64,000 bases of DNA from Candidatus Delongbacteria bacterium (lineage in GTDB: Bacteria; UBA4055): assembly GCA_016938275.1 (NCBI GenBank), contig JAFGUZ010000169.1, forward strand, positions 1,734 through 65,733, given 5' to 3'. The translations under genes were made by a program, and so were the position numbers. Each line of letters begins with the position of its first letter. Position 1 is the stretch's first letter. The notes under the pieces are model-generated. The model made no database searches. It was not told the origin of the DNA and saw only the letters and a program-made list of their open reading frames with translations. Below are positions 15,328 to 58,336 of this stretch, piece by piece.

Positions 15328-16734
15328 TTATTTTACTAAATTCATAGCTCTTGTATACTCTACTTTTCCTATATAGATTTTGCAATAATATACACCACTT
15401 ACGAGATTTGAACCATCAAAAGTGAATTCATGATAACCACTATTTAACATACCATTATAAAGCTTATCAATAATCTGTCCTTTACTATTGTAGATCATCA
15501 TACTGACATCAGAATTTTCATAGATCTCAAATGAGATCTGTGTTTCTGGATTAAAAGGATTAGGATAATTTTTAAGATCTATTCCTTTTGGAATCGCTTG
15601 CTCACCAATATAAACTTCTGGAGGAAAGCATTCATAAGTTTTCCCTATAGCCGCAATATATAATCTTTGCTTTCCATCATTCCTTGCATCTCCAAATCCG
15701 ATATTAACCGTAGCTCCAGTTACTGACTCAACAATCTCTTCTTCCCACTGATTGTTCAAATATGAGTGTCTTCTAGTATCTCCGCTTTGAGCAGTTGAAT
15801 ATACATAATATTTGCCATCATCTTCCATTCCTACTTCAAGCCCATATCTGGAAAGTAGAGGTGATGTCTCGTCTTGAATATCTATCATATTCCATTGATC
15901 ATTTTCCCATGTAAACTCATATACATGTCCAAATCGACCTGCTCCGTAAACTCTGTTTTTCCCATCATTTCTAGCAGGTCCAATAGCTGTTTTTATCATC
16001 TGATTTGGTGCATTGAGTTGCATCTCAGTATATTCAGTTCCATTCCAACTGTATTCTCTTATACAATTGTTAGATTGGTGACCATCAGAGCTGTAGATTC
16101 TATTTAAACCGTCACCTCTACCATCATCAATATTTACAGCCCAGAAATCTATATTACCAGGACAAATAATTAACTCGTCCCAATCATTACCATTCCAAGT
16201 AAATTCTCTTGTGGAAGTATATCCTGCACCAACAACTCTCATTACTCCGTCATTACGTGGAATACCAACATCAGCTCCTCCAGTTACCCAATTACTTGCC
16301 CCTCCAACTTTCTCCACTTTCCATTGTTCATTTTCATAAGAGTATTCGTAAACATAGCCATCTTGAACTGCTGCATATATTCTATTGACACCATCTCCAC
16401 GTCCATCACCTACTGTAACAGTGGATATATTGCAGAAGCTTAAATTATTAGCTTTTCCACAACTTTTCATCTCCCATTCACCGTCTTCAAATGATAACTC
16501 TAAAACTTCAGCTGAACTTGTTCCACAATACAATCTTTTAATGCCATCATTTCTACCCTCACCGATGCTATAGCTATAATACCTATGAGACGTTTGACCA
16601 ATTATAATGAATTCCCATCCTGCATAAAGGCATACAACTAATAGAGATAGAATTGAAATAATCTTAACTTTTCTCGTCATAAGAACTCCCTGATTTGATA
16701 GTCGTAATCTAATATTACTACAGATATTAGTCAA
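15328..16734 (-). CDS. Secreted repeat protein (G-x-ARNDG-x-NR-x-Y repeats, FG-GAP-like) with a T9SS C-terminal domain
   Basis: Five repeats such as GDGRGDGVNRIYA, GPARNDGKNRVYG, GDARNDGKQRLYI; C-terminal LKNYPNPFNPETQISFEI…SGVYYCKIY…MNLVK. Confidence 0.7.
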   Translation of the reverse strand: MTNICSNIRLRLSNQGVLMTRKVKIISILSLLVVCLYAGWEFIIIGQTSHRYYSYSIGEGRNDGIKRLYCGTSSAEVLELSFEDGEWEMKSCGKANNLSFCNISTVTVGDGRGDGVNRIYAAVQDGYVYEYSYENEQWKVEKVGGASNWVTGGADVGIPRNDGVMRVVGAGYTSTREFTWNGNDWDELIICPGNIDFWAVNIDDGRGDGLNRIYSSDGHQSNNCIREYSWNGTEYTEMQLNAPNQMIKTAIGPARNDGKNRVYGAGRFGHVYEFTWENDQWNMIDIQDETSPLLSRYGLEVGMEDDGKYYVYSTAQSGDTRRHSYLNNQWEEEIVESVTGATVNIGFGDARNDGKQRLYIAAIGKTYECFPPEVYIGEQAIPKGIDLKNYPNPFNPETQISFEIYENSDVSMMIYNSKGQIIDKLYNGMLNSGYHEFTFDGSNLVSGVYYCKIYIGKVEYTRAMNLVK

Positions 16735-45812: not shown

Positions 45813-47186
45813 ATGACATTAGACGAGATAAAAAGGTTTATAGAACTGGGTGAAGGTTTTCATCTTGAGTTGAAAGAATCATTAGATAAAAATTTAATAG
45901 AAGAAGTTTGTGCTTTTGCTAATTCCAGTGGCGGAAAAATTATACTCGGAGTTACAGATAAAGGTATTATAAAAGGAATCAATACAGATAATGCCACTCG
46001 TTCAAAAGTACAAGATATGTTACAACAGCTTGAACCTTCTTTACCTATTATAATCAGTGTGCTTGAAAATTTAATAATAATTGATGTACCTCAGGGAACA
46101 GAAAAACCTTATGGTTGTTCAAGAGGATTTTTTTTAAGAATTGGTCCAAATAGTCAAAAATTATCAAGAAATGAAATCGTTAGTTTTTTTGAAAAAGAAG
46201 GTCGAATTCGTTTTGATGAATTAGAAAACAGAAAAGCTGATTTCAGTAATGACTTTGACGAGAATGCATATAAGAAATTTATTCAACTTGCTAATATAAC
46301 GCCGTCTATTGAAAAAACATATCTTTTAAAAAACCTTGACTGCTTAAATGAGAATAGTAAACTGACTAATGCTGGAGTACTCTTTTTTACAAAATCAACT
46401 GATTTCTTAATAAATCATGCAACTGTTGTATGTGTTTTATATAAAGGAAATGAAAAACTTCATATCTTAGATAAGAAAGATTTTAAATCCAGCATCATTG
46501 AAAATATTGAAAACGCTGTTCTTTTTGTACAAAGACATACAAATCTTGCCTATAAAATAGAGCATTTACAAAGAGAAGAAATACCGGAAATACCAGAACT
46601 AGCTTTAAGAGAATCTATTATTAATGCTGTTTGCCATCGAGATTACTTCCAAAAAGGCTCTAATGTTATGATTGAAATATTTGATGATAGAGTTGAGATA
46701 TCAAATCCTGGAGGAATACCTTCTGAATTAGATCCGGCTGATTTTGGCACTAAAAGTGTAGCTCGGAATCCTGTTATCGCTTCATTATTACATCGAGTTG
46801 ATTATATTGAGAAAATAGGTAGTGGAATAAACAGGATAAAAAATTCTGTCAGTGATCAAAACAGTTGTACAGTTGAGTTTAAGCTTACTGGCTTTTTTAC
46901 AGTAACTTTTAAAAGAGTAGATATGATTATGAGCAGTAAAACTTCGGAGAAAACTTCGGAGAAAACTTCGGAGAAAACTTCGGAGAAAACTTCGGAGAAA
47001 ACTTCGGAGAAAATATTAAATTTGTTAAAAGAAAACTCAACAATTACTATTCAGGATTTAGCAAATTTACTCAATAAATCTACAAGGGCTGTAGAGATGC
47101 AGATTAGCAAACTAAAGTCTGAGAATAAAATTTTAAGAATTGGTGCCGATAAAGGTGGATACTGGGAAGTTGTCGAAAAAGAATGA
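45813..47186 (+). CDS. AlbA_2 (Schlafen-like) + HATPase_c_4 putative transcriptional regulator with an internal SEKT x6 repeat and a C-terminal wHTH
   Basis: N-terminal FHLELKESLD…AFANSSGGKIILGV (AlbA_2); ALRESIINAVCHRDY…GSNVMIEIFDDRVEISNPGG (HATPase_c_4); C-terminal TIQDLANLLNKSTRAVEMQISKL. Confidence 0.6.
   Translation: MTLDEIKRFIELGEGFHLELKESLDKNLIEEVCAFANSSGGKIILGVTDKGIIKGINTDNATRSKVQDMLQQLEPSLPIIISVLENLIIIDVPQGTEKPYGCSRGFFLRIGPNSQKLSRNEIVSFFEKEGRIRFDELENRKADFSNDFDENAYKKFIQLANITPSIEKTYLLKNLDCLNENSKLTNAGVLFFTKSTDFLINHATVVCVLYKGNEKLHILDKKDFKSSIIENIENAVLFVQRHTNLAYKIEHLQREEIPEIPELALRESIINAVCHRDYFQKGSNVMIEIFDDRVEISNPGGIPSELDPADFGTKSVARNPVIASLLHRVDYIEKIGSGINRIKNSVSDQNSCTVEFKLTGFFTVTFKRVDMIMSSKTSEKTSEKTSEKTSEKTSEKTSEKILNLLKENSTITIQDLANLLNKSTRAVEMQISKLKSENKILRIGADKGGYWEVVEKE
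46941..47012 (+). repeat. Perfect 12-nt tandem repeat (ACTTCGGAGAAA) x6, encoding (TSEK)6
   Basis: Six identical in-frame units within the linker of the 45813..47186 gene. Confidence 0.9.
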
Positions 47187-47536: not shown

Positions 47537-49258
47537 CTAATTTGTTCCTTTTTTTAAAAGAAATTTATTACCAGAATAGTGAAAACTACATGGATTTTTG
47601 ATAAGAATCTTATATCCTTTTCCTGGTTGCATTTCATTGAGAGAATGATAATTCCATAACGGAACATTCAAATATCCTTCAATCGATTTAACAGCATAAA
47701 TATTATTCAGAATATCAGATAAAACCTCGTCTACAGTAATTGAAGTATTCTTATAATAAGGTAAAAAATTCCACCCGATTTCTAGATCGATAATTTCAAC
47801 TTCTGGATTAATAATATTCCCTTGTAAAGTTAAATTTACACTTTCTGTAGTTTTAACAAAGAAACAATCATCAAAATCCCATTGCATCTGAGATCTATTT
47901 TTCAATAATGGACTGTAAATATTTCCCAATTCATCTTTAACGAGAATTACACTATTGTTAATCTCTGAAAAAATTTGATCAATATTTGACTGTATCGGAT
48001 TTATATATGAAGAAATAAGATTCCAACCTTTTTCTAATGAAATTGTTTGTGAACCTCCAATAACTTCGATGTTAAAGATATGATGAATCTGAGCAAAACC
48101 ATCTGAAAAAGTTAGATTAATTTCATAATCACCAATATCACTCACTTGAGGAGTTCCAGATAATTTTTTAGTAGTATTATCATATACCATCCAACTTGGT
48201 ATTGTCGCATTAGTAGTTTCAATATTATCACCATCTATGTCTTGAATTGCTATATCGTAGAGATATTCAGTTCCAATTAAAGCAATAGTTTCAGGGCTTG
48301 ATGCTATTTCAGGTGATTTATTACCAAATGACCCTGTCAAAATAAAATTATTACCAAAGTTAGAACTATTAAAGTTAAGTAAATTATTGTTTATGTTAAC
48401 TTGATTTATAGTTTCAAGTGTATCTACAGCATAAAATGAATTATACATATGATTTTCTGCTCCATTTAGGTCAGAATCTAAATATGAACAGTTAAAACTA
48501 CATTCATAACCGGAAATACCATTCATTTTAATAGACCAGTACCTATTGATGGAGGAGCTAGCTGAACTTAAAGAAAATTTTTCACTCTTAAGTGATACTT
48601 CTACACTACTTTTATTAAAAACACCTGATGAAAAATTCAGCGTAATTGGAGTTATATTATCTCCATCAGCTATAGTATTAATTGGAAATGTAAAAATTCC
48701 TGAACTATTATAATCTTTTAATACGCTACCGCCATCTTCAATAGTTATGTATCCATTATCCCTTAAAACATCAACTCCCTCAGCAAAATAAACACTATTA
48801 CTTCCTGTTCTAATTTTACTATCGTTTAGAAAAAGTGAATTTTCAATTCTTATGGGAATATTCAAACATATACCAAAAGGATTATTTAGCTCGAGTTTAT
48901 TAAATGTTATAGAGTAAACTCCAGATAAAGTTTGAATACTTAAACCATTAAATAATGTTTTACCTCTAGAATTGTAATGAATTGGGTTAGCTGAGTTGTT
49001 TTGACTAATAAAATCTCCGGTAAGACTAAAAACTGCGTTTTCAAAAATATTTACAGCACCATATCCGAAACTTTTATAATCTCCATCAACAGTAAAAAAA
49101 GTACCATTTTCAACAACTATATAAGCACGATCATTACTTACAATCACTTTATCATCATCTTTCGAGTCGTTAATCTCTATCTTATAGTCAGTACTATTAC
49201 TATGGACATGATAGGTAAAGAAAAATAAAACTATTAGAATTATAATATTTTTTTTCAT
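47537..49258 (-). CDS. Secreted protein with a cadherin-like/putative Ig (He_PIG-like) domain
   Basis: Signal peptide; …IPSWMVYDNTTKKLSGTPQVSDIGDYEINLTFSDG… matches the He_PIG pattern. Confidence 0.45.
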   Translation of the reverse strand: MKKNIIILIVLFFFTYHVHSNSTDYKIEINDSKDDDKVIVSNDRAYIVVENGTFFTVDGDYKSFGYGAVNIFENAVFSLTGDFISQNNSANPIHYNSRGKTLFNGLSIQTLSGVYSITFNKLELNNPFGICLNIPIRIENSLFLNDSKIRTGSNSVYFAEGVDVLRDNGYITIEDGGSVLKDYNSSGIFTFPINTIADGDNITPITLNFSSGVFNKSSVEVSLKSEKFSLSSASSSINRYWSIKMNGISGYECSFNCSYLDSDLNGAENHMYNSFYAVDTLETINQVNINNNLLNFNSSNFGNNFILTGSFGNKSPEIASSPETIALIGTEYLYDIAIQDIDGDNIETTNATIPSWMVYDNTTKKLSGTPQVSDIGDYEINLTFSDGFAQIHHIFNIEVIGGSQTISLEKGWNLISSYINPIQSNIDQIFSEINNSVILVKDELGNIYSPLLKNRSQMQWDFDDCFFVKTTESVNLTLQGNIINPEVEIIDLEIGWNFLPYYKNTSITVDEVLSDILNNIYAVKSIEGYLNVPLWNYHSLNEMQPGKGYKILIKNPCSFHYSGNKFLLKKGTN

Positions 49259-49262: not shown

Positions 49263-51086
49263 TTATTCCTTTGATGAATTATTACTTTTTATCAAATCTT
49301 CAACAACTTTCTTTAATTCCTCGATCTGTTTTTGCTGATTTTCTATCAATAATTGCTGTTCCTGAATCGCTTTTGTTAATACTGGAACTATACCATCATA
49401 ATTTATTCCTAAAGTCTCCCCTTTTTCAATGTCACCTTCCATACCACTTACAACCTCTGGTAATATTTCTCTGATCTCTTGTGCTATAAAACCCAGCTGT
49501 TCTTTTTTCTCTGTATCAGATTTGTAATTATATGAGACCGGTTTCAGCTTCATAATTTGTTTGATTCCATTTTTTTCATATGGAGTGATGTTTTCCTTCA
49601 ATCTTGAGTCCGAAGCACTAACCCAAGTTTCTCCATCAGAATATGCTCCACCATCAAGTGCGAAGAGATGATAAGTATATATTGATCCAATCCCAACATT
49701 TCCATTTGTCATAACTGTAAATGAAATATCACCAGTATACATATTATCTTTTTCAGCTCCCCTCCTTACTTGAAAAGCTATGTTATAATCATTATCCTTC
49801 TCAGTTCCTATAACCATAGCTGCTTCTTTCCCGTAAAAGTAATAACTCGGCCATTCAAGATTTTCTGATACAATATGAAATCTATACTTTGGATTGACTC
49901 CAATCCCCACATCTCCTTCTTCTGTTAATCTTATCTTAGAAGATGGATAATTATTTTCATATACAGGAACTCTAATATCAGTCCAATTTTGATATCCATC
50001 ATGACCAACTTCAATAACTGTTTGTTGATCCCAATATGATGCTCCCATCGAAAGTAATACTCCATAGGTTTCACCTAAATGAAGCAAACCGTATGGATTT
50101 AAAGTCTTAATTCCAAATTTACCAGCTTTATTAAATGTGAATAAATTCTGACTGGACTCAGATACAATCATCTGATCTGAGGATGCAGGAGAGAAAATTT
50201 GCCAGTCTGTGTCATAGGAAGTATCTGTTCTTTTGATTTGGTATCCTGACTGAACATTAGTTGAGACTGATGCAGAAATTCTATTTAAAGTTGTATTTGA
50301 AACTTCCAAACTATTAGTAGAATTAGTTGTACCAATGGAAACATTTCCACCAAAATAACTTTTTGCTGTACCATTGGAATAGAATGCGTAATTATTTGAA
50401 GCAGAATTTAAACCAGAAACATAAAAAGCATAATTGTTATTATTTCCAATGTTTTCTAAGTCAGCATAGTAGCCATAATTTGTTGAATTGCTTGCTCCAT
50501 TTACATATGTATTAACTCCATAGTTTACAACACCACCAGATAATCCTTGAATTAAAATATTTGCACCGATATTGTATGTTGCTCCTGCAACATCTAAGGA
50601 TATACCCCTATTCTGAAATCCTCCTACACCTTTAGCTTCAGACATAATAGAAAAATTATCATGATTGTTTAGATTAGATAGACTTCTAATTCCAATAGAT
50701 CCTCCTTCTACCAATAATTTTGAAATACTCGGAGCAGCTCCTATACCAACATTGCCAGAATTATAGTATATATCATTACCATTTACTTCCCATTGATAGG
50801 AATTTTCACCACTGTTAATTTTCGTCCAAGCTGATCCGGTGTAATAGTAGTATCCTGTAATATCATCTGTTTGGAAAACTGTTAATCCTGAAGCTGGACT
50901 CGCAATAGCTTCTCTTTCAGATTTAGTCATTCTTGGTGCTAGAAATCCTTTTGTGGTTGAAGATACATCAAGCATAGCAGAAGGATGGGCTAAAGATCCA
51001 GTCGTGTTAATACCAACTGATTGTGCATTTATTACTGTTGTAAAAAACAACAATGCGATCAAAAAAAACTTTACACACTTAACCAT
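49263..51086 (-). CDS. Tail-fibre-domain protein with a C-terminal intramolecular chaperone (peptidase S74) domain
   Basis: N-terminal …TKGFLAPRMTKSEREAIASPASGLTVFQTDD…; C-terminal SDSRLKENITPYEKNGIKQIMKLKPVSYNYK…GFIAQEIREILPEVV…INYDGIVPVLTKAIQEQ is the endosialidase-type chaperone domain. Confidence 0.6.
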   Translation of the reverse strand: MVKCVKFFLIALLFFTTVINAQSVGINTTGSLAHPSAMLDVSSTTKGFLAPRMTKSEREAIASPASGLTVFQTDDITGYYYYTGSAWTKINSGENSYQWEVNGNDIYYNSGNVGIGAAPSISKLLVEGGSIGIRSLSNLNNHDNFSIMSEAKGVGGFQNRGISLDVAGATYNIGANILIQGLSGGVVNYGVNTYVNGASNSTNYGYYADLENIGNNNNYAFYVSGLNSASNNYAFYSNGTAKSYFGGNVSIGTTNSTNSLEVSNTTLNRISASVSTNVQSGYQIKRTDTSYDTDWQIFSPASSDQMIVSESSQNLFTFNKAGKFGIKTLNPYGLLHLGETYGVLLSMGASYWDQQTVIEVGHDGYQNWTDIRVPVYENNYPSSKIRLTEEGDVGIGVNPKYRFHIVSENLEWPSYYFYGKEAAMVIGTEKDNDYNIAFQVRRGAEKDNMYTGDISFTVMTNGNVGIGSIYTYHLFALDGGAYSDGETWVSASDSRLKENITPYEKNGIKQIMKLKPVSYNYKSDTEKKEQLGFIAQEIREILPEVVSGMEGDIEKGETLGINYDGIVPVLTKAIQEQQLLIENQQKQIEELKKVVEDLIKSNNSSKE

Positions 51087-51244: not shown

Positions 51245-53236
51245 CTAATCATGACACAACGAACATTTAATATCATCGTTAGTTTTATGATTTCCACTGA
51301 ATGAAAAGCTCCATTCATCATGGCAACGTAGACAATCAAATGAAGCATTAACATGAAACTTAGAAGATGCTTTTAAAAAGTCAGTTTTATGACAATCATA
51401 ACAATTATTATGAGGTTTAGTAGTTCTGAAAGTAATATCATTTTCATGGCATTCATCACAATCGGCAATTTTATGAGAACCATTGAGTCTAAATCCCGAA
51501 AATTTATGTTTATAATCTAAAATACTCCATTCTTCAACATCATGACATTCGGAGCAATTACTATTTAAATAACCTTTATGATAATCTGAATGACAACTAA
51601 TACATGATGACGACACATTAAAATTATGATTCTTATGACAGACATTACAATCTGTTTGAGCATGCTTTCCAGCTTCGAACTTTTGGTTCTTGTGATCATA
51701 ATTTACATTCTTAAACTTAACATCATTATGACAGGTATTACACTTTAAGTCTAGATTATTATTATGGATATTCTCATGACAAAATTTACAATCAATTGAT
51801 TTATCCTCAAAAACTGCATTTTTTACATTTTTATAATCCGGACTGCTTCCACTCCACTTGTGACACTCTCTACATTTCAAATCTTTATGGCTGTTTACGG
51901 TTTTAAAATTTAGTTTATTATGATCAAATTTACCGGTATTTTTCCAATCAGTCTGATTATGACAATCCAAACAATTTTTACTCAATTGATTATTATGACG
52001 ATCTTCATGGCAGTCTAGACAAGTAACATCTTTATCAGAAATATAAAACTTATGCTCTTTTTTATGGCATTTACTACACTCTTTATCCTTGTGAGCCTCA
52101 ACTAGTTCATATTTTGCCAATCTTGTATGGTCGAAATTGTCTGCAATCTTAAAATTTTTCTGATTATGGCACTTCAGACATTCATCACTTAATGTATTTT
52201 TATGAACATCCTCATGGCAGCTTTGACAAGTGGAAAATTTCAATTTTCGATTAACTTTATGGCATTCAAAACATTTTAAATCTGCATGAGTATCCACTAG
52301 TTCGTAATTTGATACTTTCTTATGGTCAAAAGGTTTTAAATCTTTAAATGATGTTTCCTTATGACATAATTGACAATCTTTATCCTTAGTATCGAAAACA
52401 TTTTGGTGGTTTGATTCATGACAAGATGAGCAAGTTTTTTTATCAAGCTTGTACTCTCTGGTTTCATGGCAAGTATTACAACTTAATGTTCTATGAACAT
52501 CAACAAGTTTAAAACCTGTCGTATCATGATTAAAAATTTCTGGTTGAAAAAATGTTTTATCAAAAACACTGTGGCAAGCTTCGCATTTATTGCCAAGTTT
52601 TCCTTTATGAGGCTCATCTTTTCCGTGACAATCAATACAATTTTTCTTTTCAGTTTTAAATTTATATTCAGAGTGACACTTAAGACAAGTTAGCTTAGTA
52701 TGAGAACCCAAAATATCAAATTTATCATGTTTAAAACTATCATTCATTTTCTTGAAACTATTTGTATTATGGCATCTCTCACAATCATTATCAAACTCTT
52801 TATCATGTTTACTTTCATGGCATGTATGACAATTTGTAGACTCTACCATATACGTGGAATCACTTTTTGTATGGCAATTATTACAATTAACTCTAATATG
52901 ATTTCCAGTAAGTTTATATCCTGTTTCATCATGATTAAAGGATCCAATATTCAAATTTCTAGAATCATAATCTATTCCATGATGGTCAGAATGACACTTA
53001 AAACAATCCTCTTTCTTATCTTTATGATAACCTTTATTTTCGTCAATTCTCTTCTTTAAAACTTTATGACATGCTAAACACAAATCTTCAGATAAAGTTT
53101 TTTCAGAGGTGTGACATAATGAACAGCTATCCAGCGTATCGTAAGCAGAATGAGACTTTGTCAATTTTCCTGGACTGAAAATACTTGAAATTCCCAGAAC
53201 TGTCAGGATGAATATGAATAGAATTATTTTTTTCAT
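51245..53236 (-). CDS. Periplasmic multiheme cytochrome c (about 28 CxxCH motifs)
   Basis: Signal peptide; about 28 CxxCH haem-binding sites in 663 aa with repeating CxxCH-(x)n-H modules. Confidence 0.85.
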   Translation of the reverse strand: MKKIILFIFILTVLGISSIFSPGKLTKSHSAYDTLDSCSLCHTSEKTLSEDLCLACHKVLKKRIDENKGYHKDKKEDCFKCHSDHHGIDYDSRNLNIGSFNHDETGYKLTGNHIRVNCNNCHTKSDSTYMVESTNCHTCHESKHDKEFDNDCERCHNTNSFKKMNDSFKHDKFDILGSHTKLTCLKCHSEYKFKTEKKNCIDCHGKDEPHKGKLGNKCEACHSVFDKTFFQPEIFNHDTTGFKLVDVHRTLSCNTCHETREYKLDKKTCSSCHESNHQNVFDTKDKDCQLCHKETSFKDLKPFDHKKVSNYELVDTHADLKCFECHKVNRKLKFSTCQSCHEDVHKNTLSDECLKCHNQKNFKIADNFDHTRLAKYELVEAHKDKECSKCHKKEHKFYISDKDVTCLDCHEDRHNNQLSKNCLDCHNQTDWKNTGKFDHNKLNFKTVNSHKDLKCRECHKWSGSSPDYKNVKNAVFEDKSIDCKFCHENIHNNNLDLKCNTCHNDVKFKNVNYDHKNQKFEAGKHAQTDCNVCHKNHNFNVSSSCISCHSDYHKGYLNSNCSECHDVEEWSILDYKHKFSGFRLNGSHKIADCDECHENDITFRTTKPHNNCYDCHKTDFLKASSKFHVNASFDCLRCHDEWSFSFSGNHKTNDDIKCSLCHD

Positions 53237-54459
53237 AGTAGATTTATATAGTTATACCCAACTTTAAAACTTATTAATATATGAACTATCAACAAGATAA
53301 ACATTATTATCGTTGCGACAATGTGAATTATATGCCATGACTTTAGAAGATTTCTATAACAAGTGAATCTAAAATATTGAAAATAAAGGACAGCAATTTT
53401 TTGCTCATCTTCACTGGTTATTCCTAAAGATTTAAAAAATCTAACCATACCAAACAAGACTGATTTTGGAATTTTCCTGGAGTCTTTTATCTTTTCTAAT
53501 CTATTTAGTAAATTTTGCAAATTTTCTTTATCTTCTGAATTTAAAATAATATGCTCTGCTTTAGCTAGAAACTCCATATGACTTTCATCGTAGAAAAAGA
53601 AAAATGAAAGTTTAGTGTAAACATATCTTCCCAATGCACCAGTAAGCACAGCAAGTAGTGTCGCTAAAAAAAGATAGAAAGCTAAAGTCTCACTATTAAA
53701 TTTAAACGCAGTATGCCAAATGATCAGAACAAAAGCCATTACACCCGTCGTCATATGAATCTTTAGATTTCGTTCCAGATTAAATTTTTCGTATCGTTTA
53801 AATCTTCTGATATAAACATAAAATAGGTTTATTAAAAAAAGTAAAGTCCCCACAATTCCAAGCATATGACCAACAAGTCCGCCGGGTTTAAGAAAAAAAT
53901 GTAGATCATTTTGAAGTCTCTGTTCGATCGGAGTTGAATAGTAGTTATAAAACATAAAAGCAGGAACAACCGTTATCATAATAAATAGAAGTGAAAGTAG
54001 ATAGTATTTCAAATTATCAAACGGTTTAAAATCCTCTTCACAACCTTCAATTAAAGCTCCAGTAGGACAAGCAATTATACAGGATTTATTTTCAAAACCT
54101 TTACACAAATCACACTTCATAACAGAGTCAGCTCTCCCACGCTTTTCTCTATTGTTAAATACTGCCGAAAGAACACCATTCGAACATTTCTTAACACACA
54201 ACGTACAGCTAATACATTTGGAATAATCAATTATAGGAATCTGTTTTTCATCGTCAATTGTAATGCATTTTACAGGACATGATGCCATACATGCATGATC
54301 TTCACAGATAAGACAATTTACAGTTTTACGTATGAATCCTACTTCTTCACCATATGGAATACGTCTATTTTGTCCGTGTCTATCAGCACAAGCTGTTTCA
54401 CAAAGTCCACAATCTATACATCTGTCAGTTCTGCAATATATTATATTTTTTCTACTCAT
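53233..54459 (-). CDS. Membrane-anchored polyferredoxin: N-terminal cytoplasmic domain with four [4Fe-4S]-type Cys clusters fused to a five-helix His-rich membrane domain (NarI/HdrE/DsrM-like candidate di-haem b)
   Basis: CIDCGLCETAC, CLICEDHACMASCP, CISCTLCVKKC and CDLCKGFENKSCIIACP; then five hydrophobic helices with conserved His (GHMLG, IHMTTG, WHTAF, WHIIHIV, VHILI). No signal peptide. Confidence 0.65.
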   Translation of the reverse strand: MSRKNIIYCRTDRCIDCGLCETACADRHGQNRRIPYGEEVGFIRKTVNCLICEDHACMASCPVKCITIDDEKQIPIIDYSKCISCTLCVKKCSNGVLSAVFNNREKRGRADSVMKCDLCKGFENKSCIIACPTGALIEGCEEDFKPFDNLKYYLLSLLFIMITVVPAFMFYNYYSTPIEQRLQNDLHFFLKPGGLVGHMLGIVGTLLFLINLFYVYIRRFKRYEKFNLERNLKIHMTTGVMAFVLIIWHTAFKFNSETLAFYLFLATLLAVLTGALGRYVYTKLSFFFFYDESHMEFLAKAEHIILNSEDKENLQNLLNRLEKIKDSRKIPKSVLFGMVRFFKSLGITSEDEQKIAVLYFQYFRFTCYRNLLKSWHIIHIVATIIMFILLIVHILISFKVGYNYINLL

Positions 54460-55279
54460 TCCAATTCACCTGATTATGACAAGTATAGCATGCTGTATCT
54501 TCAGTTGGTTCATGATGAGAATTAAAATCATCCTCATGACAATAGAAACAGATCAATTTATTATCTTCTGGCGGTATTCCCAAGTGACATGTCGAGCAAC
54601 TGTAAGTTGCATGTTCACCCTCAATTACAAAAGAGTGACTATAATTTTGTACATTCCAATTATCCAGATCGGTATGACAATCAAGGCAATTTGAATTATT
54701 TTCAAAGTATTGGTGAATCTCATTTTGATCTTCTCCAATGTGACAGTTCAGGCAAACATTACGATTGTCTATATAATTATCAAAATGGCAGGCTATACAA
54801 GTATAAATTTGATGATATTCGCCAATTACAAGTTTAGTATGAGTGTAATTTTGAACATACCAGTCTGAATCATTATGGCAAGTTTCACATGATGAACTGA
54901 AAAGATTTGTGAAATGATTTACATAACTGTCGCTTCCTGGACGTTCTGTAGCATGACAATTTATACACTGCTTACCGATATTATGATAATCTACTGTGTA
55001 TTCAGTCATTTGATGACATTCATAACAAGTAGTTTGAATATTGTTTAATTTGTGATTTGGAACTTTAGCCGTATCGTACATCTCTGTATGACATGAAATA
55101 CACTGAATATTTTTGTATTCAGAATCATCTATATGGCAGACATTACAATCCTCAACAATATGCCTACCCAATTGCTCTTCAGTGTGATAATCCTGAGGAG
55201 ATAAATTGTTTTTGACTTTTTCACCATCTATACATGAGATTGTAAGCGATATAAGTATAAGATATATTATAATTTTCAT
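54452..55279 (-). CDS. Multiheme cytochrome c lipoprotein (11 CxxCH)
   Basis: Lipoprotein signal (LTISC); 11 CxxCH motifs in 275 aa. Confidence 0.85.
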   Translation of the reverse strand: MKIIIYLILISLTISCIDGEKVKNNLSPQDYHTEEQLGRHIVEDCNVCHIDDSEYKNIQCISCHTEMYDTAKVPNHKLNNIQTTCYECHQMTEYTVDYHNIGKQCINCHATERPGSDSYVNHFTNLFSSSCETCHNDSDWYVQNYTHTKLVIGEYHQIYTCIACHFDNYIDNRNVCLNCHIGEDQNEIHQYFENNSNCLDCHTDLDNWNVQNYSHSFVIEGEHATYSCSTCHLGIPPEDNKLICFYCHEDDFNSHHEPTEDTACYTCHNQVNWNE

Positions 55280-56415
55280 TTATGATCCAATGAATACTTG
55301 AAAGTAATATTTGCTATCTGTCTTGCATGTTTTGCAGTATCAATTACAGTATCAAACCCAAAAATAAGCTTAAAATTTTCAGTTTTCCATATACCTGATA
55401 TTCTTGGCATTATTGTTAATACGATATCCGTATAATCACTGGAATTTGAAGATTCTGTAACTAATTCAAGCCCAGCCCTTAAAAGAAAATTTCTAGAAAA
55501 TTTCTCCGTTACTCCAGTTTCAAAATCAATATAATCACACCAATTATTACTTCCTGCAATAATGTCAGAATACATATCATAACCAAAAATAAATTTGTAA
55601 ATTTCAGAATTTACACCAAACTCCACAAATTTATATTCGCCATCTCTGTATTTTGAGTTTACGTTTAAATTGAATTTCTCGAAAGGAATGTAGGTTGATA
55701 AACCATAAGTAGAAAATCTTGATTTAGAATAGATCGTATCATTTATTGCATCTGTAAAATACAATTGATTTGAATAATCTGTTCTAAGAATAAATCTATC
55801 AAAATCGTATGAGATTTGAGCACTACCATTCTTTAAATTACTATCGCTGAAATTGTAATTAAAAATTCCTGAAAAACTTTTCTCTGAATCGTTGTAGTTT
55901 AAGAAATTACAGAAATAGTATTTCCCTTGGTCTTTATTTAAAGAAGTATTAAAACCTATTAACTCTGATGAAATTCTAACTCCGGTGAAAAAATTTGTTA
56001 CATCTGCACTAAACTTATCATAATCCACACTACTTCCCACACCTGTATAGAAACCTAATTTATCAGTACCATAAGGTTCGCTAAAAATATAAGCTCCATC
56101 ATACAAGCCTGATATGGAAGGTAAAGGTATAAAATATCTACCAAGTACCATTGTATAATGTTTTTTAATTAAACTCATTTCTAGTTTCTTGACTTGAAAG
56201 TAGTTGTCATTATAAGTTTCTGTAATTTTGTTTTTGAAGAATAAATCATAGTCATAAACTACATTTTCTCCGTAAAATCCATCAGATTTAAAACCTAATC
56301 CAGGGGACAAATAGTAATTGGATCTACTATCAATACTAAAGCCGGACTTTGAATAGAACTCCAAATTTCCGGCTAAAATAATATTTACGAATATTAGAAC
56401 AAGAAATAATTTCAC
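55276..56415 (-). CDS. Putative outer-membrane beta-barrel (porin-like) protein
   Basis: Signal peptide; amphipathic beta-strand composition rich in Y/F/N/S/T/G with alternating hydrophobics; aromatic-rich C-terminal strand (…ITFKYSL); GTG start overlapping the upstream stop. Confidence 0.5.
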   Translation of the reverse strand: MKLFLVLIFVNIILAGNLEFYSKSGFSIDSRSNYYLSPGLGFKSDGFYGENVVYDYDLFFKNKITETYNDNYFQVKKLEMSLIKKHYTMVLGRYFIPLPSISGLYDGAYIFSEPYGTDKLGFYTGVGSSVDYDKFSADVTNFFTGVRISSELIGFNTSLNKDQGKYYFCNFLNYNDSEKSFSGIFNYNFSDSNLKNGSAQISYDFDRFILRTDYSNQLYFTDAINDTIYSKSRFSTYGLSTYIPFEKFNLNVNSKYRDGEYKFVEFGVNSEIYKFIFGYDMYSDIIAGSNNWCDYIDFETGVTEKFSRNFLLRAGLELVTESSNSSDYTDIVLTIMPRISGIWKTENFKLIFGFDTVIDTAKHARQIANITFKYSLDHK

Positions 56416-57242
56416 TATTTAACCAGTATCATCTTTCTTGAAAGTTCCTGATTTATTCCAGAAAATTTAACGAAATAAACACCACTTATTAATCTACTTC
56501 CATCAAAATTGAAAGAGTGTATTCCTGAGCTTAGTTTACCATTATAGACTTCTGCAACGATTTCTCCTTTTGCATTTACAACATTGAGTTTACCATAATC
56601 TTCCACATCAGATTTAAGTTCAATCGTTGTAGTTGGATTAAAAGGATTTGGATAGTTTGAAATATTCATATTGGAAGCCAAATTCTCATCAATACCAACA
56701 GGATTAACAAGTATATCAATGTTTTCACTTTGCTCATAATCGTTATTACCTACAAATGCGTAGGCTTTTAAAGTATAAGTTCCAGCGGTTTCAGGAGCTT
56801 TTAATGTCCAAGTCCAAACCAGACTTCCATCAGCTCTTTCGTTGTAATTAAATTTTGTAGTATTGCTATTAGGATCTTCAATTATTTCCCAACCTTTATT
56901 TTGAGGCATGTCAACAGTAGAACCATCAACGCTCATAAGATACACACCCATAATTTTACCAGCACCAGGATGGAACGGAGGATTGTAGCCAGGAGCTACT
57001 TCGTAAGTAAAGGTTATCTCTTCATTTATGTTTACTTCTACTTGTGTTGTTGTTAATACTAAGTTTTTTTGACCATTTGAAGGTCCTGAAGAGTGACATG
57101 ATCTACAGTATTGATTACCATACTTGTCAGTCAGATAACTTCCGTTCCAGTTTCCAGGAACATTACTGCCATTTGTGTAATGATTTGCATAGCCAAATGC
57201 AAAACCAACTAAAGCTACTATTGCTATTGCGATTATTTTCAC
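56415..57242 (-). CDS. Secreted monoheme c-type (CxxCH) protein with an Ig-like middle region and a T9SS C-terminal domain
   Basis: Signal peptide; single CRSCH; C-terminal ISNYPNPFNPTTTIELKSD…SGVYFVKFSG…RKMILVK; GTG start with a GGGG RBS. Confidence 0.6.
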   Translation of the reverse strand: MKIIAIAIVALVGFAFGYANHYTNGSNVPGNWNGSYLTDKYGNQYCRSCHSSGPSNGQKNLVLTTTQVEVNINEEITFTYEVAPGYNPPFHPGAGKIMGVYLMSVDGSTVDMPQNKGWEIIEDPNSNTTKFNYNERADGSLVWTWTLKAPETAGTYTLKAYAFVGNNDYEQSENIDILVNPVGIDENLASNMNISNYPNPFNPTTTIELKSDVEDYGKLNVVNAKGEIVAEVYNGKLSSGIHSFNFDGSRLISGVYFVKFSGINQELSRKMILVK

Positions 57243-57430
57243 TTTTGATCCCCTTTTTCTCTCTAATAACGTGGTAATTAAATAAATATTTTAAAAAAGT
57301 ATACAAAAAAAATATTTAATTTTACATCTAGTTTATTAACTAAAAAAATAAATTCTGGTTACAATGATTTTAGCATTTTCATTTAATTAGTATAAAACTA
57401 GACTAAATCTGTCAATTATTTTGTTGGCTT

Positions 57431-57446
57431 TGTAACATATATTACA
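57431..57446. promoter_or_regulatory. Imperfect palindrome TGTAA-N6-TTACA (CRP/FNR-like half-sites) in the divergent promoter region
   Basis: Seen directly in the 260-nt intergenic region between the cytochrome operon and the divergent Fe-S gene. Confidence 0.25.
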
Positions 57447-57502
57447 TTAAAGATTAAATCAATAGCTTATAATTTGATCATAAACTACGAAAGGAGAACA
57501 AA

Positions 57503-58336
57503 ATGATAAGAGAAATGGTAAAGATAGATAATGATAAATGTGATGGATGTGGATTATGTGTTCCAAATTGTCATGAGGGAGCATTGCAAATAATTGATGG
57601 TAAAGCAAGATTGATATCTGACCTAATGTGTGATGGTTTGGGGGCATGTATTGGACATTGTCCTCAAGGAGCTATCACGATTGAAAAAAGAGAAGCTATG
57701 CCATACGATGAGATTAAGGTATTAAAAGACAACATTATACCTGCTGGTAAAAATGTGTTAAAAGCTCATTTAGAACATCTACATGAGCATGGAGAAACTG
57801 AATATCTAAATGAAGCATTAAATTTTCTTAAGTCTGAAAATATAAATATTCCAGATTATAAAGCAGTAAAATTATGCTCAAGTGGTGGTTGTCCTGGCTC
57901 TGCAATAAAGGAGATAAAAAGAGAATCTGATGATTCAGTTAATGCAGAGACTCCATCAGAATTGACTCAATGGCCAGTTCAGTTACATTTAGCAAATCCA
58001 GCAGCTACCTATTTTAAAAATGCAGATCTTTTAGTTGCAGCAGATTGTACTGCTTTTACAATTGGTAATTTTCATTCAAAATATTTGAAAGGTAAAAAAC
58101 TTGTAATTGCTTGTCCAAAACTGGACTCAAATCAAGATGTTTATCTGAGAAAAATTAAAGCACTAATTGATCAAGCAGAAATCAATACATTAACAGTAAT
58201 GATTATGGAAGTTCCATGCTGTGGAGGTCTTGTTCAGCTAGTCAAAAATGCTGTAAATGATTCAAAGAGAAAAGTACCTGTAAAATTAATCATTGTTGGT
58301 ATAGAAGGTGTAATTAAAAAAAATGAATGGATTTAA
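57503..58336 (+). CDS. 4Fe-4S dicluster domain protein with a FrhB-like/CCG-like C-terminal domain
   Basis: CDGCGLCVPNC and CDGLGACIGHCP ferredoxin motifs; C-terminal VAADCTAF…VPCCGG. Confidence 0.5.
   Translation: MIREMVKIDNDKCDGCGLCVPNCHEGALQIIDGKARLISDLMCDGLGACIGHCPQGAITIEKREAMPYDEIKVLKDNIIPAGKNVLKAHLEHLHEHGETEYLNEALNFLKSENINIPDYKAVKLCSSGGCPGSAIKEIKRESDDSVNAETPSELTQWPVQLHLANPAATYFKNADLLVAADCTAFTIGNFHSKYLKGKKLVIACPKLDSNQDVYLRKIKALIDQAEINTLTVMIMEVPCCGGLVQLVKNAVNDSKRKVPVKLIIVGIEGVIKKNEWI

Follow-up and report, generated by a model that had tools for sequence, protein, structure and literature searches.

A five-gene multihaem operon from Candidatus Delongbacteria with the parts of a candidate cytoplasm-to-surface electron conduit

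Five overlapping genes, here called g1 to g5 in order of transcription, lie in a 64,000-nucleotide stretch of Candidatus Delongbacteria DNA (the window), and they raise the question of whether a single operon could carry electrons from the cytoplasm to the cell surface, as an earlier note on this DNA proposed, and whether its parts belong together. On recheck the five minus-strand open reading frames match the coordinates of that note exactly (Table 1). The overlaps, claimed as 1-8 nt, are 1, 4, 8 and 4 nt, with junctions reading TAGTG (g1/g2), ATGA (g2/g3), ATGAGTAG (g3/g4) and ATGA (g4/g5), and we regard tight translational coupling as confirmed. Counts of CxxCH motifs in g1 to g5 are 1, 0, 11, 0 and 28, and a motif scan across all five revealed no CxxxCH or CxxxxCH variants. 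Motifs and profiles bear out the proposed parts list of a T9SS-tailed monohaem protein, an 11-haem lipoprotein, an Fe-S/b-type fusion and a 28-haem cytochrome; no gene for a cytoplasmic electron donor is present among the five. The GC content of the operon (0.30-0.31) is the same as that of the remainder of the window, and there is thus no sign of recent acquisition. The intergenic region 5' of g1 is common to g1 and a divergent gene encoding a ferredoxin domain; promoter matches within it are generic only and no better than those of shuffled sequences. A G-rich stretch, AAAAAGGGGATCAAAA, lies ahead of the g1 start.

Table 1. Features of the operon and its upstream region (window positions; strand in brackets).
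Feature	Position	Extent	Description
g1	56415..57242 (-)	275 aa	Secreted monohaem protein; CRSCH at aa 46-50
g1 haem-attachment motif CRSCH	57093..57107 (-)		Contains the sole two Cys of g1
g1 T9SS type A C-terminal sorting domain	56418..56654 (-)	aa 197-275	PF18962, TIGR04183
g2	55276..56415 (-)	379 aa	Secreted; candidate outer-membrane barrel, beta-type and aromatic residues abundant
g3	54452..55279 (-)	275 aa	11-haem c-type lipoprotein
g4, full open reading frame	53233..54459 (-)		
g4 N-terminal domain	54025..54459 (-)	aa 1-145	Cytoplasmic 4x[4Fe-4S] domain, HycB/HydN-like
g4 C-terminal domain	53236..54012 (-)		Five-helix membrane domain; four invariant His; probable dihaem cytochrome b
g5	51245..53236 (-)	663 aa	28-haem c-type cytochrome
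Intergenic region	57243..57502 (.)	260 bp	5' of g1; presumed promoter region

A plausible scenario, to which we give a probability of about 0.58, is that the five gene products form an extracellular-electron-transfer conduit of the porin-cytochrome kind, passing electrons from one redox protein to the next across both membranes, from cytoplasm to surface. We infer that a low-potential cytoplasmic donor, perhaps reduced ferredoxin or a docking dehydrogenase, would reduce the HycB-like N-domain of g4 at its four [4Fe-4S] clusters. The sequence of g4 supports a crossing of the inner membrane via two stacked bis-His haems b, ligated by H235/H379 towards the cytoplasm and by H249/H393 towards the periplasm, in a logic resembling that of NOX, MsrQ and DUF4405; a quinone step would not be needed, though possible, and the conduit may bypass the quinone pool. 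As the sequence of g5 likewise suggests, electrons would then pass into its 28-haem chain of nine c7-type trihaem modules which, if extended like Geobacter c7 polymers, could span much of the periplasm. From there we infer transfer to the 11-haem g3, which with the putative barrel g2 would cross the outer membrane in porin-cytochrome fashion, and g1, exported and probably surface-attached via the type IX secretion system, would presumably be the outermost redox centre. We favour outward flow because electrons would run from low-potential Fe-S clusters to haems and because the membrane potential aids their outward movement. The operon would then probably serve to unload reducing equivalents onto an external acceptor, for example Fe(III), Mn(IV), humics or a partner cell.

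The inner-membrane entry point, g4, has no signal or Tat peptide, and its 16 cysteines form four [4Fe-4S] motifs (C14x2Cx2Cx3C, C49x2Cx4Cx3C, C82x2Cx2Cx3C and C116x2Cx7Cx3C). These motifs, together with five hydrophobic helices whose loops follow the positive-inside rule, agree with the proposed cytoplasmic four-cluster domain and five-helix anchor. Profile A1, compared with PDB, matches HDCR HycB4 (6e-22), HycB3 (1.3e-20) and FHL HycB (3.4e-16) over aa 10-161, the best Foldseek matches also being HycB-type, and across alignments most of the 16 cluster cysteines are invariant and the others nearly so. The invariant histidines of the membrane domain are H235/H249 on TM3 and H379/H393 on TM5 (Hx13H twice), and across two phyla there are no others. 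Among ten members of the g4 family, eight match DUF4405 in Pfam (best 6e-6), two Ni_hydr_CYTB (1.6e-7) and three Ferric_reduct, g4 itself being under every Pfam cytochrome-b cut-off (16.6 bits vs 28; 12.9 vs 30.1). The AlphaFold model of g4 is poor (pLDDT 57), and its Foldseek match to the NOX5 fold is not significant (E 0.41). The membrane domain is probably a dihaem cytochrome b holding two bis-His haems. Of the earlier assignment to a di-haem b of NarI/DsrM type, the dihaem part thus stands as probable, on the four invariant histidines, but the NarI/DsrM affinity is absent and is rejected here, weak but consistent affinities pointing to PF01292, Ferric_reduct and DUF4405, with a likeness across the family to DUF4405, b561 and ferric-reductase models. 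Haem b binding is reported for a purified DUF4405 protein with four central histidines, and transmembrane electron transfer was proposed as its role (PMC11334425). Cytochromes of the DUF4405, MsrQ, PepSY-like and NOX kinds resemble g4 in having four conserved histidines on two transmembrane helices (Hx13H twice) and in their proposed task, which is to supply extracytosolic acceptors, across the membrane, with electrons from the cytoplasm. Unlike DUF4405-type cytochromes, g4 carries an N-terminal HycB-like 4x[4Fe-4S] fusion rather than having flavin partners, and its electrons would go not to a flavinylated protein or to MsrP but to a giant multihaem cytochrome c.

A periplasmic multihaem cytochrome, a membrane cytochrome b and a cytoplasmic Fe-S protein also make up TmcABC and HmcA/E/F, and this equal topology invites an inward reading, in which the multihaem cytochromes would collect electrons in the periplasm, from hydrogenase or formate dehydrogenase for instance, and the b haems would relay them to the Fe-S domain for a reduction in the cytoplasm. 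We consider this quite improbable. Matches to HmcA, HmcB, QrcA and DsrO exist but are weak and sub-threshold, all matches to the NCBIfam models of Hmc, Qrc, Nrf, Dsr, DmsB and Arr being far under cut-off; membership of an Hmc complex is not supported, HmcA for instance scoring 16.7 bits against a cut-off of 400. The Fe-S module is HycB-like and not HdrD/CCG-like, the anchor is not NarI-like, genes for hydrogenase, formate dehydrogenase and sulfate reduction are absent from the window, and the OMP-like and T9SS-sorted partners would be left unexplained. The concern that the operon might be a known reductase-type complex with a catalytic subunit is not borne out either, Pfam and NCBIfam searches having found no such subunit and no known reductase family among its genes.

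The presumed acceptor of g4, g5, begins with a signal peptide or signal anchor and is built of nine c7-type trihaem modules in tandem, repeating every 63-80 aa, and one C-terminal haem. It matches Pfam Cytochrome_C7 at 9.7e-33 across 8 stretches, and weakly matches the PDB entry 3ouq_A, which we take to be a fragment of GSU1996. Geobacter c7 polymers extend about 3 nm per module; those of the GSU1996 type are made of the same kind of trihaem module as g5, GSU1996 having four modules and 12 haems as compared with nine and 28.

Genome comparisons show the g4-g5 pair at about 30 loci in Myxococcota and in two relatives of low GC content. In 31 loci the g4 homolog is adjoined by a collinear g5 ortholog, and the stop and start codons of the pair usually overlap in the relative L001 and the Myxococcota loci. 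The cytochromes at these loci contain 24-28 haems and are collinear with g5 at 28-30% identity (E 1e-54 to 1e-69). Where the flank is long enough, in 24 of 24 Myxococcota loci, this core is followed by a gene for a signal-peptide protein with the ending ...FARIAYRF. The terminus resembles an OMP beta-signal, and the arrangement gives an independent link between the core and the outer membrane. In some Myxococcota loci the gene immediately upstream encodes a flavoprotein of the NAD(P)H type that has a ferredoxin domain, and in Type B loci a Fer4 + Pyr_redox flavoprotein (3e-40) adjoins the g4 homolog. L001 has no g1-g3-like genes near its g4 and g5, so the core can occur without this outer module. 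The orders g3-g4-g5 (overlapping) and g1-g2 recur in fragments of one related metagenome. The neighbourhood conservation that had been suggested as a check therefore holds for g4 and g5 in Myxococcota and L001, but for g1-g3 only in fragmentary close relatives. By these comparisons g4 and g5 are an old conserved pair and g1-g3 a lineage-specific add-on, and the five are not one evolutionary unit. The proposed path from cytoplasm to surface gains from the tie between the core and an OMP-type gene in Myxococcota and loses in that g1-g3 are not part of the conserved unit.

The chain could instead end in the periplasm, with g4 and g5 feeding a periplasmic sink or store (a haem 'capacitor') or, in the manner of MsrQ, reductases or repair enzymes; g1-g3 would then be secreted haem proteins that happen to share a transcript, and g2 would not be a membrane barrel. 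Such an ending is consistent with the L001 arrangement, with the putative status of the g2 barrel (pLDDT 29.8; no profile match) and with the extracytosolic, not extracellular, acceptors that DUF4405, MsrQ and PepSY-like cytochromes typically serve (PMC11334425). It is nevertheless unlikely, given the OMP-like gene attached to the core in Myxococcota, the bona fide T9SS export tail of g1, the 1-8 nt overlaps that tie all five genes, and the cost of forty haems for a periplasmic shuttle.

In the favoured outward route the outer membrane would be crossed by g3 and g2. The N-terminus of g3 comprises a signal peptide and, by inspection, an L-T-I-S-C16 lipobox, which presumably satisfies the PROSITE lipoprotein rule; its haems are packed at 25 residues per haem, with 12 non-motif histidines. 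In the fragment L088 the C-terminus of a g3 ortholog (56% column identity, ~70 aligned residues) overlaps the g4 ortholog. The g2 product has a signal peptide, a mature part without a hydrophobic helix (maximum KD19 0.77), a 19.6% share of F+Y+W, and an end, ...FKYSLDHK, that is no textbook beta-signal. Its AlphaFold single-sequence model (pLDDT 29.8) is unusable, profile and PDB searches returned no family or PDB match, and a search of 5.8e9 word-indexed clusters and an exhaustive scan of 1.84e9 representatives returned only g2 itself. There is no significant profile match to the barrel-like family of Myxococcota (probability 0.4%), and fragments L087 and L089 share the g1-to-g2 order and an N-terminal g2 motif. 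We therefore describe g2 as a candidate, a putative small outer-membrane barrel and a sequence orphan.

A further alternative, which we think very improbable, is that g2 anchors g1 as a PorP/SprF-like outer-membrane adaptor of the T9SS, specific to this cargo and not an electron-conducting sheath, another component crossing the outer membrane. Genes for T9SS cargo often lie beside one for a small outer-membrane barrel of comparable size, and the g1-to-g2 synteny is conserved; however, no match to PorP/SprF or any other T9SS component was found in Pfam or NCBIfam at E < 0.1, and the tail of g1 is type A whereas PorP/SprF partners are type B CTD cargo. As for a porin role, the argument that the barrel is too small for a decahaem and so implies a different mechanism is weak, since Pcc porins, with just 18-22 predicted strands and partner cytochromes of 5-14 haems, are 'much smaller than MtrB' (PMC4245776). 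They are also extremely divergent, down to 8% identity (PMC4245776), and an orphan sequence such as g2 is therefore not unusual for this role.

The putative outermost component, g1, begins with a signal peptide, followed by an Ig-like or choice-of-anchor V-like beta domain and the C-terminal sorting domain that had been claimed for it, which scores above the curated cut-offs of PF18962 (39.1 bits, 9.3e-10; cut-off 27) and TIGR04183 (35.4 bits, 7.5e-9; cut-off 23). Residues 35-172, including the N-terminal GCxxCH region, align with the choice-of-anchor V domain (NF041895; MXAN_6652 family) at 39.6 bits, narrowly below the cut-off of 42, and g1 orthologs score lower (28.7 and 24.5 bits); CxxCH is retained in the orthologs P0012 (53%) and P0013 (48%). 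Judged by these alignments g1 is a divergent choice-of-anchor V-like monohaem domain. As a T9SS-sorted c-type protein g1 is not unique, since two bona fide choice-of-anchor V proteins, P0050 and P0047, also end in T9SS type A tails. The motif position is a canonical CxxCH in P0050 and a degenerate CF-CH in P0047. Of the bona fide members the latter alone has an informative contig (L083), where its neighbours are T9SS-tailed proteins with no Pfam cytochrome matches. Four more T9SS-tailed proteins are encoded within the window. We also note that a single surface haem would be an unusual terminal reductase, which counts against the favoured reading.

An N-terminal monohaem CxxCH beside a small barrel-sized protein recalls Cyc2, a fused cytochrome-porin, and the g1-to-g2 adjacency is kept in three relatives. 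Electron uptake or Fe(II) oxidation, with g1 and g2 as a split Cyc2 and electrons moving inward via g3 and g5, is nonetheless the least probable of the readings: this route would end at low-potential [4Fe-4S] clusters, strongly uphill and against the membrane potential, genes for carbon fixation, a terminal oxidase or a high-potential acceptor are absent from the window, and g1, which has a T9SS tail and an Ig-like domain, is not fused to the barrel.

The earlier note knew of no description of this five-part combination, and we too found none in searchable papers, nor one of a g4-g5-type inner-membrane entry module. Several known systems share parts of the plan. Geobacter CbcL, a quinone-linked bc-type cytochrome, and CbcBA couple a dihaem b-type membrane domain to a periplasmic multihaem c, and to our knowledge both are without a cytoplasmic Fe-S domain. 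CbcBA is described as a quinone-linked bc-type cytochrome in a preprint (bioRxiv 10.1101/2021.04.15.440034). The Geobacter-type Pcc (OmbB-OmaB-OmcB; one in Ignavibacterium album) likewise has a barrel-sized secreted protein, a compact multihaem cytochrome (5-14 haems in Pcc periplasmic partners, 11 in g3; PMC4245776) and an outward-facing c-type protein. No homology between the operon and Pcc is detectable, and the operon differs in that g3, its multihaem partner, is a lipoprotein, that the monohaem T9SS-sorted g1 takes the place of a multihaem lipoprotein as surface component, and that the cluster includes its own inner-membrane entry module (g4) and a 28-haem periplasmic cytochrome (g5). Shewanella MtrCAB shares the concept of a haem wire through an outer-membrane barrel with a surface cytochrome. 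MtrB has ~700 aa, however, about twice the 379 aa of g2, which is without an MtrB_PioB match; the MtrA/DmsE model gives g3 a score of 27.5 bits (cut-off 192.2), the MtrC-type domain score is sub-threshold (23.9 vs 30), and Mtr is fed by the quinol dehydrogenase CymA, in place of which the operon has an Fe-S/cytochrome b fusion. Desulfovibrio Tmc/Hmc is alike in combining a cytoplasmic Fe-S protein, a membrane cytochrome b and a periplasmic (high-molecular-weight) multihaem cytochrome c, but its parts are non-homologous (HdrD/CCG rather than HycB-like, NarI-like rather than DUF4405-like), the presumed direction of electron flow in the operon is opposite, and the operon adds outer-membrane and surface partners.

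The five overlapping minus-strand genes g1 to g5, numbered in transcription order, lie where inspection of the sequence had placed them, and their overlaps and haem-motif counts are likewise confirmed. The junctions from g1/g2 to g4/g5 read TAGTG, ATGA, ATGAGTAG and ATGA, giving overlaps of 1, 4, 8 and 4 nt, and there are 1, 0, 11, 0 and 28 CxxCH motifs in g1 to g5 respectively, with no variant haem motifs in any of the five. The GC content of the operon (0.30-0.31) is the same as that of the window; a promoter scan gave no promoter-like sites clearly above shuffled sequence, and no terminator was detected 3' of g5. Our preferred reading, to which we give a probability of roughly 0.58, is that the operon is an outward electron conduit, a trans-envelope system of the porin-cytochrome kind.

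Coordinates of the operon, its neighbours in the window and related loci on contigs of other genomes
Feature	Sequence	Position	Strand	Length or remark
g1, T9SS-tailed monohaem protein	window	56415-57242	minus	275 aa
g2, candidate outer-membrane barrel	window	55276-56415	minus	379 aa
g3, 11-haem lipoprotein	window	54452-55279	minus	275 aa
g4, Fe-S/putative cytochrome b fusion	window	53233-54459	minus	408 aa
g5, 28-haem cytochrome	window	51245-53236	minus	663 aa
Ferredoxin-domain protein	window	57503-58336	plus	277 aa
Peptidase_S74 secreted protein	window	49263-51086	minus	607 aa
He_PIG secreted protein	window	47537-49258	minus	573 aa
Schlafen AlbA_2 protein	window	45813-47186	plus	
Flagellin gene	window	822-1709		
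T9SS type A sorting-domain protein	window	5876-7351	minus	
T9SS type A sorting-domain protein	window	15328-16734	minus	
T9SS type A sorting-domain protein	window	17831-20182	minus	
T9SS type A sorting-domain protein	window	25272-26882	plus	
g4+g5 pair	L001	5580-9230		second low-GC lineage
T9SS-tailed repeat protein	L001	3380-4672		upstream of the pair
Fusion protein with extra N-terminus	L024	7242-9521		Myxococcota
Barrel-like protein	L010	11937-13865		Myxococcota
Flavoprotein	L005	5102-7339		matching ORFs in L007, L018
Small haem lipoprotein (alignment A8)	L005	4405-5088		precedes fusion gene
Small haem lipoprotein (alignment A8)	L007	4567-5088		precedes fusion gene
Small haem lipoprotein (alignment A8)	L016	6747-7406		precedes fusion gene
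Small haem lipoprotein (alignment A8)	L018	11-520		precedes fusion gene
Small haem lipoprotein (alignment A8)	L002	3721-4203		precedes fusion gene

Two large secreted proteins are encoded downstream on the same strand as g5, the nearer, 158 nt away, with an intramolecular-chaperone domain (Peptidase_S74, tail-fibre type) at its C-terminus and the farther with a He_PIG Ig domain; because there is no terminator-like site in between, co-transcription of these two genes with g5 is possible. Divergent from g1, and 260 bp upstream of it, lies a gene whose product combines a 2x[4Fe-4S] ferredoxin domain at the N-terminus with a C-terminal Cys-rich region that matches no family. This protein may serve g4 as a redox partner in the cytoplasm or may have nothing to do with it. 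The window also holds a flagellin gene and a gene for a protein with Schlafen AlbA_2, HATPase_c_4 and HTH domains, which carries a perfect tandem peptide repeat, (TSEK)x6, near its C-terminal third.

The product of g4 has neither a signal peptide nor a Tat peptide, and its first 145 aa contain 16 Cys and four [4Fe-4S] motifs, the cluster Cys being invariant or nearly invariant across alignments. When the g4 family profile is compared with the PDB, residues 10-161 match HycB4 (6e-22) and HycB3 (1.3e-20), which are four-cluster subunits of hydrogen-dependent CO2 reductase, and HycB of formate hydrogenlyase (FHL; 3.4e-16); Foldseek with a g4 model confirms the HycB-like domain, with the same top matches. 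The four motifs and the similarity over the whole domain make this a four-cluster ferredoxin of the HycB/HydN type, in agreement with the cytoplasmic four-cluster domain described in the earlier note.

Five hydrophobic helices follow the Fe-S domain, with loop charges that fit an N-in, C-out topology. Across ten sequences from two phyla the only invariant His of the transmembrane domain are H235 and H249 in TM3 and H379 and H393 in TM5, each pair spaced as Hx13H, and these pairs would hold two stacked bis-His haems. Among ten family members DUF4405 is matched by eight (best 6e-6), Ferric_reduct by three and Ni_hydr_CYTB by two (best 1.6e-7; the relative P0003, at 29.3 bits, falls short of the 30.1 cut-off), and g4 itself lies under the gathering thresholds of Ferric_reduct (16.6 bits; 28) and Ni_hydr_CYTB (12.9 bits; 30.1). 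We assign the domain as a putative dihaem cytochrome b because of the His pattern and these weak, family-wide Pfam matches. A profile of the transmembrane domain finds no true match among PDB sequences, an AlphaFold model from four sequences is poor (pLDDT 57), and the Foldseek match of this region to NOX5, at E 0.41, is a hint rather than evidence. A purified DUF4405 protein binds haem b and has four central conserved His in an MsrQ/PepSY-like architecture, and its authors suggest that it takes part in moving electrons across the membrane (PMC11334425). The earlier suggestion of a di-haem b anchor of the NarI/DsrM type holds for the five helices and a probable dihaem b and fails for the family, since neither g4 nor its 10 relatives match NarI or DsrM at E <= 0.1.

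The cytochrome encoded by g5 is built from nine trihaem modules of the c7 type in tandem, repeating every 63-80 aa, and one C-terminal haem; the 28 CxxCH agree with the earlier estimate, and there are 33 non-motif His. Eight stretches match Pfam Cytochrome_C7 (9.7e-33, 112.3 bits, cut-off 24.8), and NCBIfam nanowire_3heme scores 22.2 bits, under its cut-off of 40. The single match in a PDB sequence search is 3ouq_A (0.0026), which we take to be part of GSU1996, a c7 polymer of Geobacter, and the tandem trihaem arrangement suggests that g5 is a multihaem polymer of that c7 type.

Comparison with relatives indicates that g4 and g5 are a conserved unit. On a contig from a second low-GC lineage (L001), a g4 homolog with 38% identity is separated by 4 nt from the next gene, for an 820-aa multihaem cytochrome collinear with g5 (33% identity, E 5e-116); a gene for a T9SS-tailed repeat protein lies upstream and a DJ-1/PfpI gene downstream. 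Full-length g4 relatives are also found in about 30 Myxococcota MAGs of the Kofleriaceae and Haliangiales, in a scan of one genome per species, and some of these MAGs are named after EBPR (wastewater) and sediment samples. In nearly all of the Myxococcota loci a cytochrome of about 800 aa with 24-28 CxxCH lies directly 3' of, or overlaps, the g4 relative, and aligns collinearly with g5 (residues 1-647) at 28-30% identity, with E 1e-54 to 1e-69. The Myxococcota fusion proteins are about 700-760 aa long, and about 250 aa of this form an additional N-terminal region without a Pfam match. Some shorter, ferredoxin-only relatives (P0006, P0009 and P0010) have cNMP-binding domains, a hint that a nucleotide ligand may act as a regulator.

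Directly 3' of the large Myxococcota cytochrome is a gene for a protein of about 550-640 aa. The protein carries a signal peptide, its linker is acidic and rich in Lys, its body is beta-rich, and it ends in ...GFARIAYRF, a C-terminus typical of outer-membrane beta-barrels. It follows the cytochrome in all 24 of the loci with enough flanking sequence, with identities of 28-64% (alignment A7), and has no match in Pfam, NCBIfam or the PDB; such proteins probably form an uncharacterised family of outer-membrane barrels that is specific to the module. A 467-aa 'conserved ORF' near these loci was discarded as an Arg-rich shadow frame. Among the conserved neighbours of the type A loci no electron-donor gene is present, the flanks carrying the rpe and rsmB housekeeping genes and a response regulator.

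A second layout is seen in four loci (L005, L007, L016 and L018), in which the cytochrome and barrel-like genes are transcribed divergently, and genes for a flavoprotein with Fer4 and pyridine-nucleotide-disulfide-oxidoreductase domains and for a small haem lipoprotein lie 5' of the g4 relative. The flavoprotein of L005, encoded immediately upstream of the fusion, matches Pyr_redox_3 (3e-40) and a YpdA-like family (1.4e-44), and is a candidate for the electron donor on the NAD(P)H side in this layout. The small lipoprotein (A8) has an AGC lipobox, an invariant CLMCHH/CLSCHH, a C-terminal CNT[SA]GCH (CX4CH-like) and a CarboxypepD_reg-like beta-sandwich. With its monohaem and Ig-like fold it may be a functional counterpart of g1, and no homology between the two was detected.

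The conservation of the neighbourhood, which the earlier note had left to be checked, therefore extends to the g4+g5 pair and stops short of the outer module: counterparts of g1-g3 are found neither in L001, where the 16.7 kb of contig retrieved also holds no barrel-like gene near the pair, nor in the Myxococcota loci. A chain that ends in the periplasm, where it would take up or store electrons or provide them to periplasmic enzymes, would account for a pair such as that of L001 standing without g1-g3, and would sit easily with a barrel fold for g2 that is only putative; we consider it unlikely. The strongest independent argument that the chain reaches the exterior is that an outer-membrane-type gene is recurrently attached to the core in another phylum.

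Closer to home, two short contigs of one metagenome (SRR26541473) represent a nearer relative, of which public data hold fragments only. On one, a g4 ortholog (49%) overlaps both the C-terminal end of a g3 ortholog, which has 56% column identity in about 70 aligned residues, and the N-terminus of a g5 ortholog, and on the other a g1 ortholog is followed by a g2-like start; a metagenome scan with g4 returned ferredoxin-domain matches only. Relatives within the lineage probably share the order of all five genes, and the outer module with its T9SS-sorted monohaem protein is lineage-specific.

Within this outer module, g3 contains 11 CxxCH at 25 residues per haem and 12 other His, enough for bis-His ligation of all haems. 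Its signal peptide ends, by inspection, in a lipobox (L-T-I-S-C16) and its Pfam matches are of the c3/c7 type, as expected of the 11-haem lipoprotein cytochrome that had been proposed.

The assignment of g2 is less direct. The protein, which is identical to JXR48_13595 of a Candidatus Delongbacteria MAG, carries a signal peptide and lacks hydrophobic helices; 19.6% of its residues are aromatic, and Ser, Asn, Asp and Gly are abundant. It has 13 merged segments of alternating hydrophobicity; a hydrophobic-moment periodicity test for beta amphipathicity did not separate it from controls. A word-indexed search and an exhaustive phmmer search of 1.84 billion representatives each recovered the query itself and no homolog, so that g2 is a strict sequence orphan; Pfam and NCBIfam give no family, phmmer against the PDB nothing relevant, and AlphaFold from the single sequence an unusable model (pLDDT 29.8). 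In two short metagenome fragments a g1 ortholog is followed by an ORF, available as its gene start alone, with a signal peptide and the N-terminal motif Y-x-[KR]-S ... Y-x-L-x-P-x-x-G in common with g2; the g1-to-g2 pair therefore recurs. An outer-membrane barrel is a plausible candidate identity for g2. Comparison with the Myxococcota barrel-like family by hhalign is not significant (E 0.15). This alignment includes a short common stretch, GR[QY]FI...(9)...[FY]DG (g2 residues 92-107, A7 consensus columns 175-246), which may resemble a motif of AlgE-like barrels and on which we place no weight. That g2 might instead be an adaptor for T9SS cargo is very improbable, since it matches no PorP/SprF-type model in Pfam or NCBIfam, and PorP/SprF membership was rejected for that reason.

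The surface component would be g1. It has an N-terminal Sec signal peptide, judged by inspection (MKIIAIAIVALVGFAFGYA), and only two Cys, both in CRSCH at residues 46-50. Residues 197-273 score above the curated cut-offs of TIGR04183 (35.4 bits; 23) and PF18962 (39.1 bits; 27), which points to a T9SS type A cargo and supports the secreted, T9SS-tailed monohaem protein proposed earlier. Residues 35-172 reach 39.6 bits with NCBIfam choice-of-anchor V (NF041895), just below the cut-off of 42, and the full-length orthologs P0012 (53%) and P0013 (48%), which keep the CxxCH, reach 28.7 and 24.5 bits, so g1 is best described as a divergent relative of this family and not a formal member. Two bona fide members, P0050 (133 bits) and P0047 (151 bits), have CASCH and a degenerate CF-CH, respectively, at the position aligned to the g1 CxxCH, and choice-of-anchor V is a family of surface-anchored, putatively haem-binding domains. 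Both carry T9SS tails, so this locus is not alone in encoding a c-type protein with such a tail. Of the bona fide members only P0047 lies on an informative contig (L083), where its neighbours are T9SS-tailed proteins without Pfam cytochrome matches. No T9SS machinery genes (SprA/Sov, PorV, PorU etc.) occur within the 64-kb window; it encodes four further T9SS-tailed proteins, from which we conclude that such cargo is abundant in this genome, and T9SS cargo annotation is found on many Delongbacteria proteins.

A plausible scenario for the preferred outward conduit is that a low-potential cytoplasmic donor reduces the Fe-S clusters of g4, the flavoprotein neighbour in Myxococcota suggesting NAD(P)H as the donor in some lineages. 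Electrons would pass from the four clusters to the two b haems across the inner membrane and on to the periplasmic c7 polymer g5, two steps that have sequence support, and may then reach g3, acting with g2 at the outer membrane, and finally g1 at the cell surface. Outward flow is favoured because the low-potential Fe-S clusters lie at the cytoplasmic end and the membrane potential would aid outward movement of electrons; the reverse would be strongly uphill.

The g4+g5 core would be an inner-membrane entry module that is phylogenetically widespread and apparently undescribed. Searches of literature outside subscription journals found no description of a Fer4-cytochrome b fusion with a giant cytochrome, nothing joining T9SS and multihaem cytochromes and nothing on electron transfer in Delongbacteria, in keeping with the earlier remark that the combination is not known to have been described; nor was a module of this type found described in literature on Myxococcota, DUF4405 or choice-of-anchor proteins with multihaem cytochromes or extracellular electron transfer. 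A bolder proposal, which we hold as doubtful, is that the core and an outer-membrane partner form an undescribed class of 'hard-wired' trans-envelope electron export. A HycB-like Fe-S domain fused to a NOX/DUF4405-like dihaem b would feed a single cytochrome of about 28 haems, bypassing the quinone pool, and this cytochrome would span the periplasm and plug into an outer-membrane barrel; the class would be widespread in uncultured Kofleriaceae and Haliangiales and capped in Delongbacteria by a T9SS-displayed cytochrome c. Such a cap would be, to our knowledge, the first functional link between type IX secretion and extracellular electron transfer, and raises the question of whether T9SS can export and display a holo-cytochrome c.

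The characterised Gram-negative routes of extracellular electron transfer that we know of start at the quinone pool (CymA, ImcH, CbcL, CbcBA), and a path from cytoplasmic Fe-S clusters through two b haems to a giant cytochrome in the periplasm would differ from them in bioenergetic design; such quinone-independent wiring from cytoplasm to surface would, if real, surprise specialists. The module would dissipate charge and conserve no energy, suiting it to the shedding of excess fermentation reductant, and candidate electroactivity would be extended to the poorly studied Delongbacteria and Kofleriaceae/Haliangiales. The conserved three-gene Myxococcota version provides a compact system in which this is directly testable.

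Known complexes offer several points of comparison. NCBIfam scores against cut-offs are 16.7/400 for HmcA, 24.6/180 for QrcA, 20.6/420 for HmcB, 22.3/200 for DsrO, 19.6/134 for NrfH and 20.4/378 for NrfC, and on HMM scores Hmc/Tmc/Qrc/Nrf membership was ruled out. An inward Hmc/Tmc-like complex would have the identical topology, yet with every model score far under cut-off and no hydrogenase or formate dehydrogenase within the window it is improbable. A catalytic subunit is present neither in the operon nor beside it, and the known reductase-type complex that the earlier note had weighed against its own proposal was not found. Mtr membership was likewise excluded on HMM scores: g3 gives 27.5 bits with the MtrA/DmsE model TIGR03508, far under its cut-off of 192.2, and the MtrC/OmcA domain PF22113 scores 23.9 in g3 and 26.4 in g5 (cut-off 30). 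In MtrCAB a barrel of the MtrB/PioB-type family is expected, whereas g2 belongs to no Pfam or NCBIfam family, and no curated family in either collection covers g2, the whole g4 fusion, g5 as a family or the Myxococcota barrel-like protein.

Cyc2 combines a monohaem domain and a 16-strand porin in one polypeptide, whereas here, judged by layout, two genes encode the haem motif and the candidate barrel, and the haem protein g1 comes with an Ig-like domain and a T9SS tail. A split Cyc2 made of g1 and g2 that takes up electrons or oxidises Fe(II) would be thermodynamically awkward given the Fe-S terminus and is very improbable.

The organisation of g1-g3 resembles that of Pcc, whose small porins, with 18-22 predicted strands and identities down to 8%, are paired with cytochromes of 5-14 haems (PMC4245776), just as the 11-haem g3 adjoins and overlaps the candidate barrel g2. 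The small size and divergence of these porins undercut the earlier argument that a 380-aa barrel is too small and implies a different mechanism. Differences from Pcc are that g3 has a lipobox, whereas the OmaB type is soluble, and that most Pcc clusters include an outer-membrane multihaem lipoprotein cytochrome, whereas g1 has one haem motif, no lipobox and a T9SS tail; with one defining feature lacking, in a comparison with OmaB, OmbB and OmcB by features, we do not count the locus as a Pcc member. The compartment logic of the core is that of TmcBC/HmcEF, built from different parts: its inner-membrane module would work like the transmembrane wires of NOX, MsrQ and DUF4405-type proteins, and g5 is a larger relative of the Geobacter c7 polymers.
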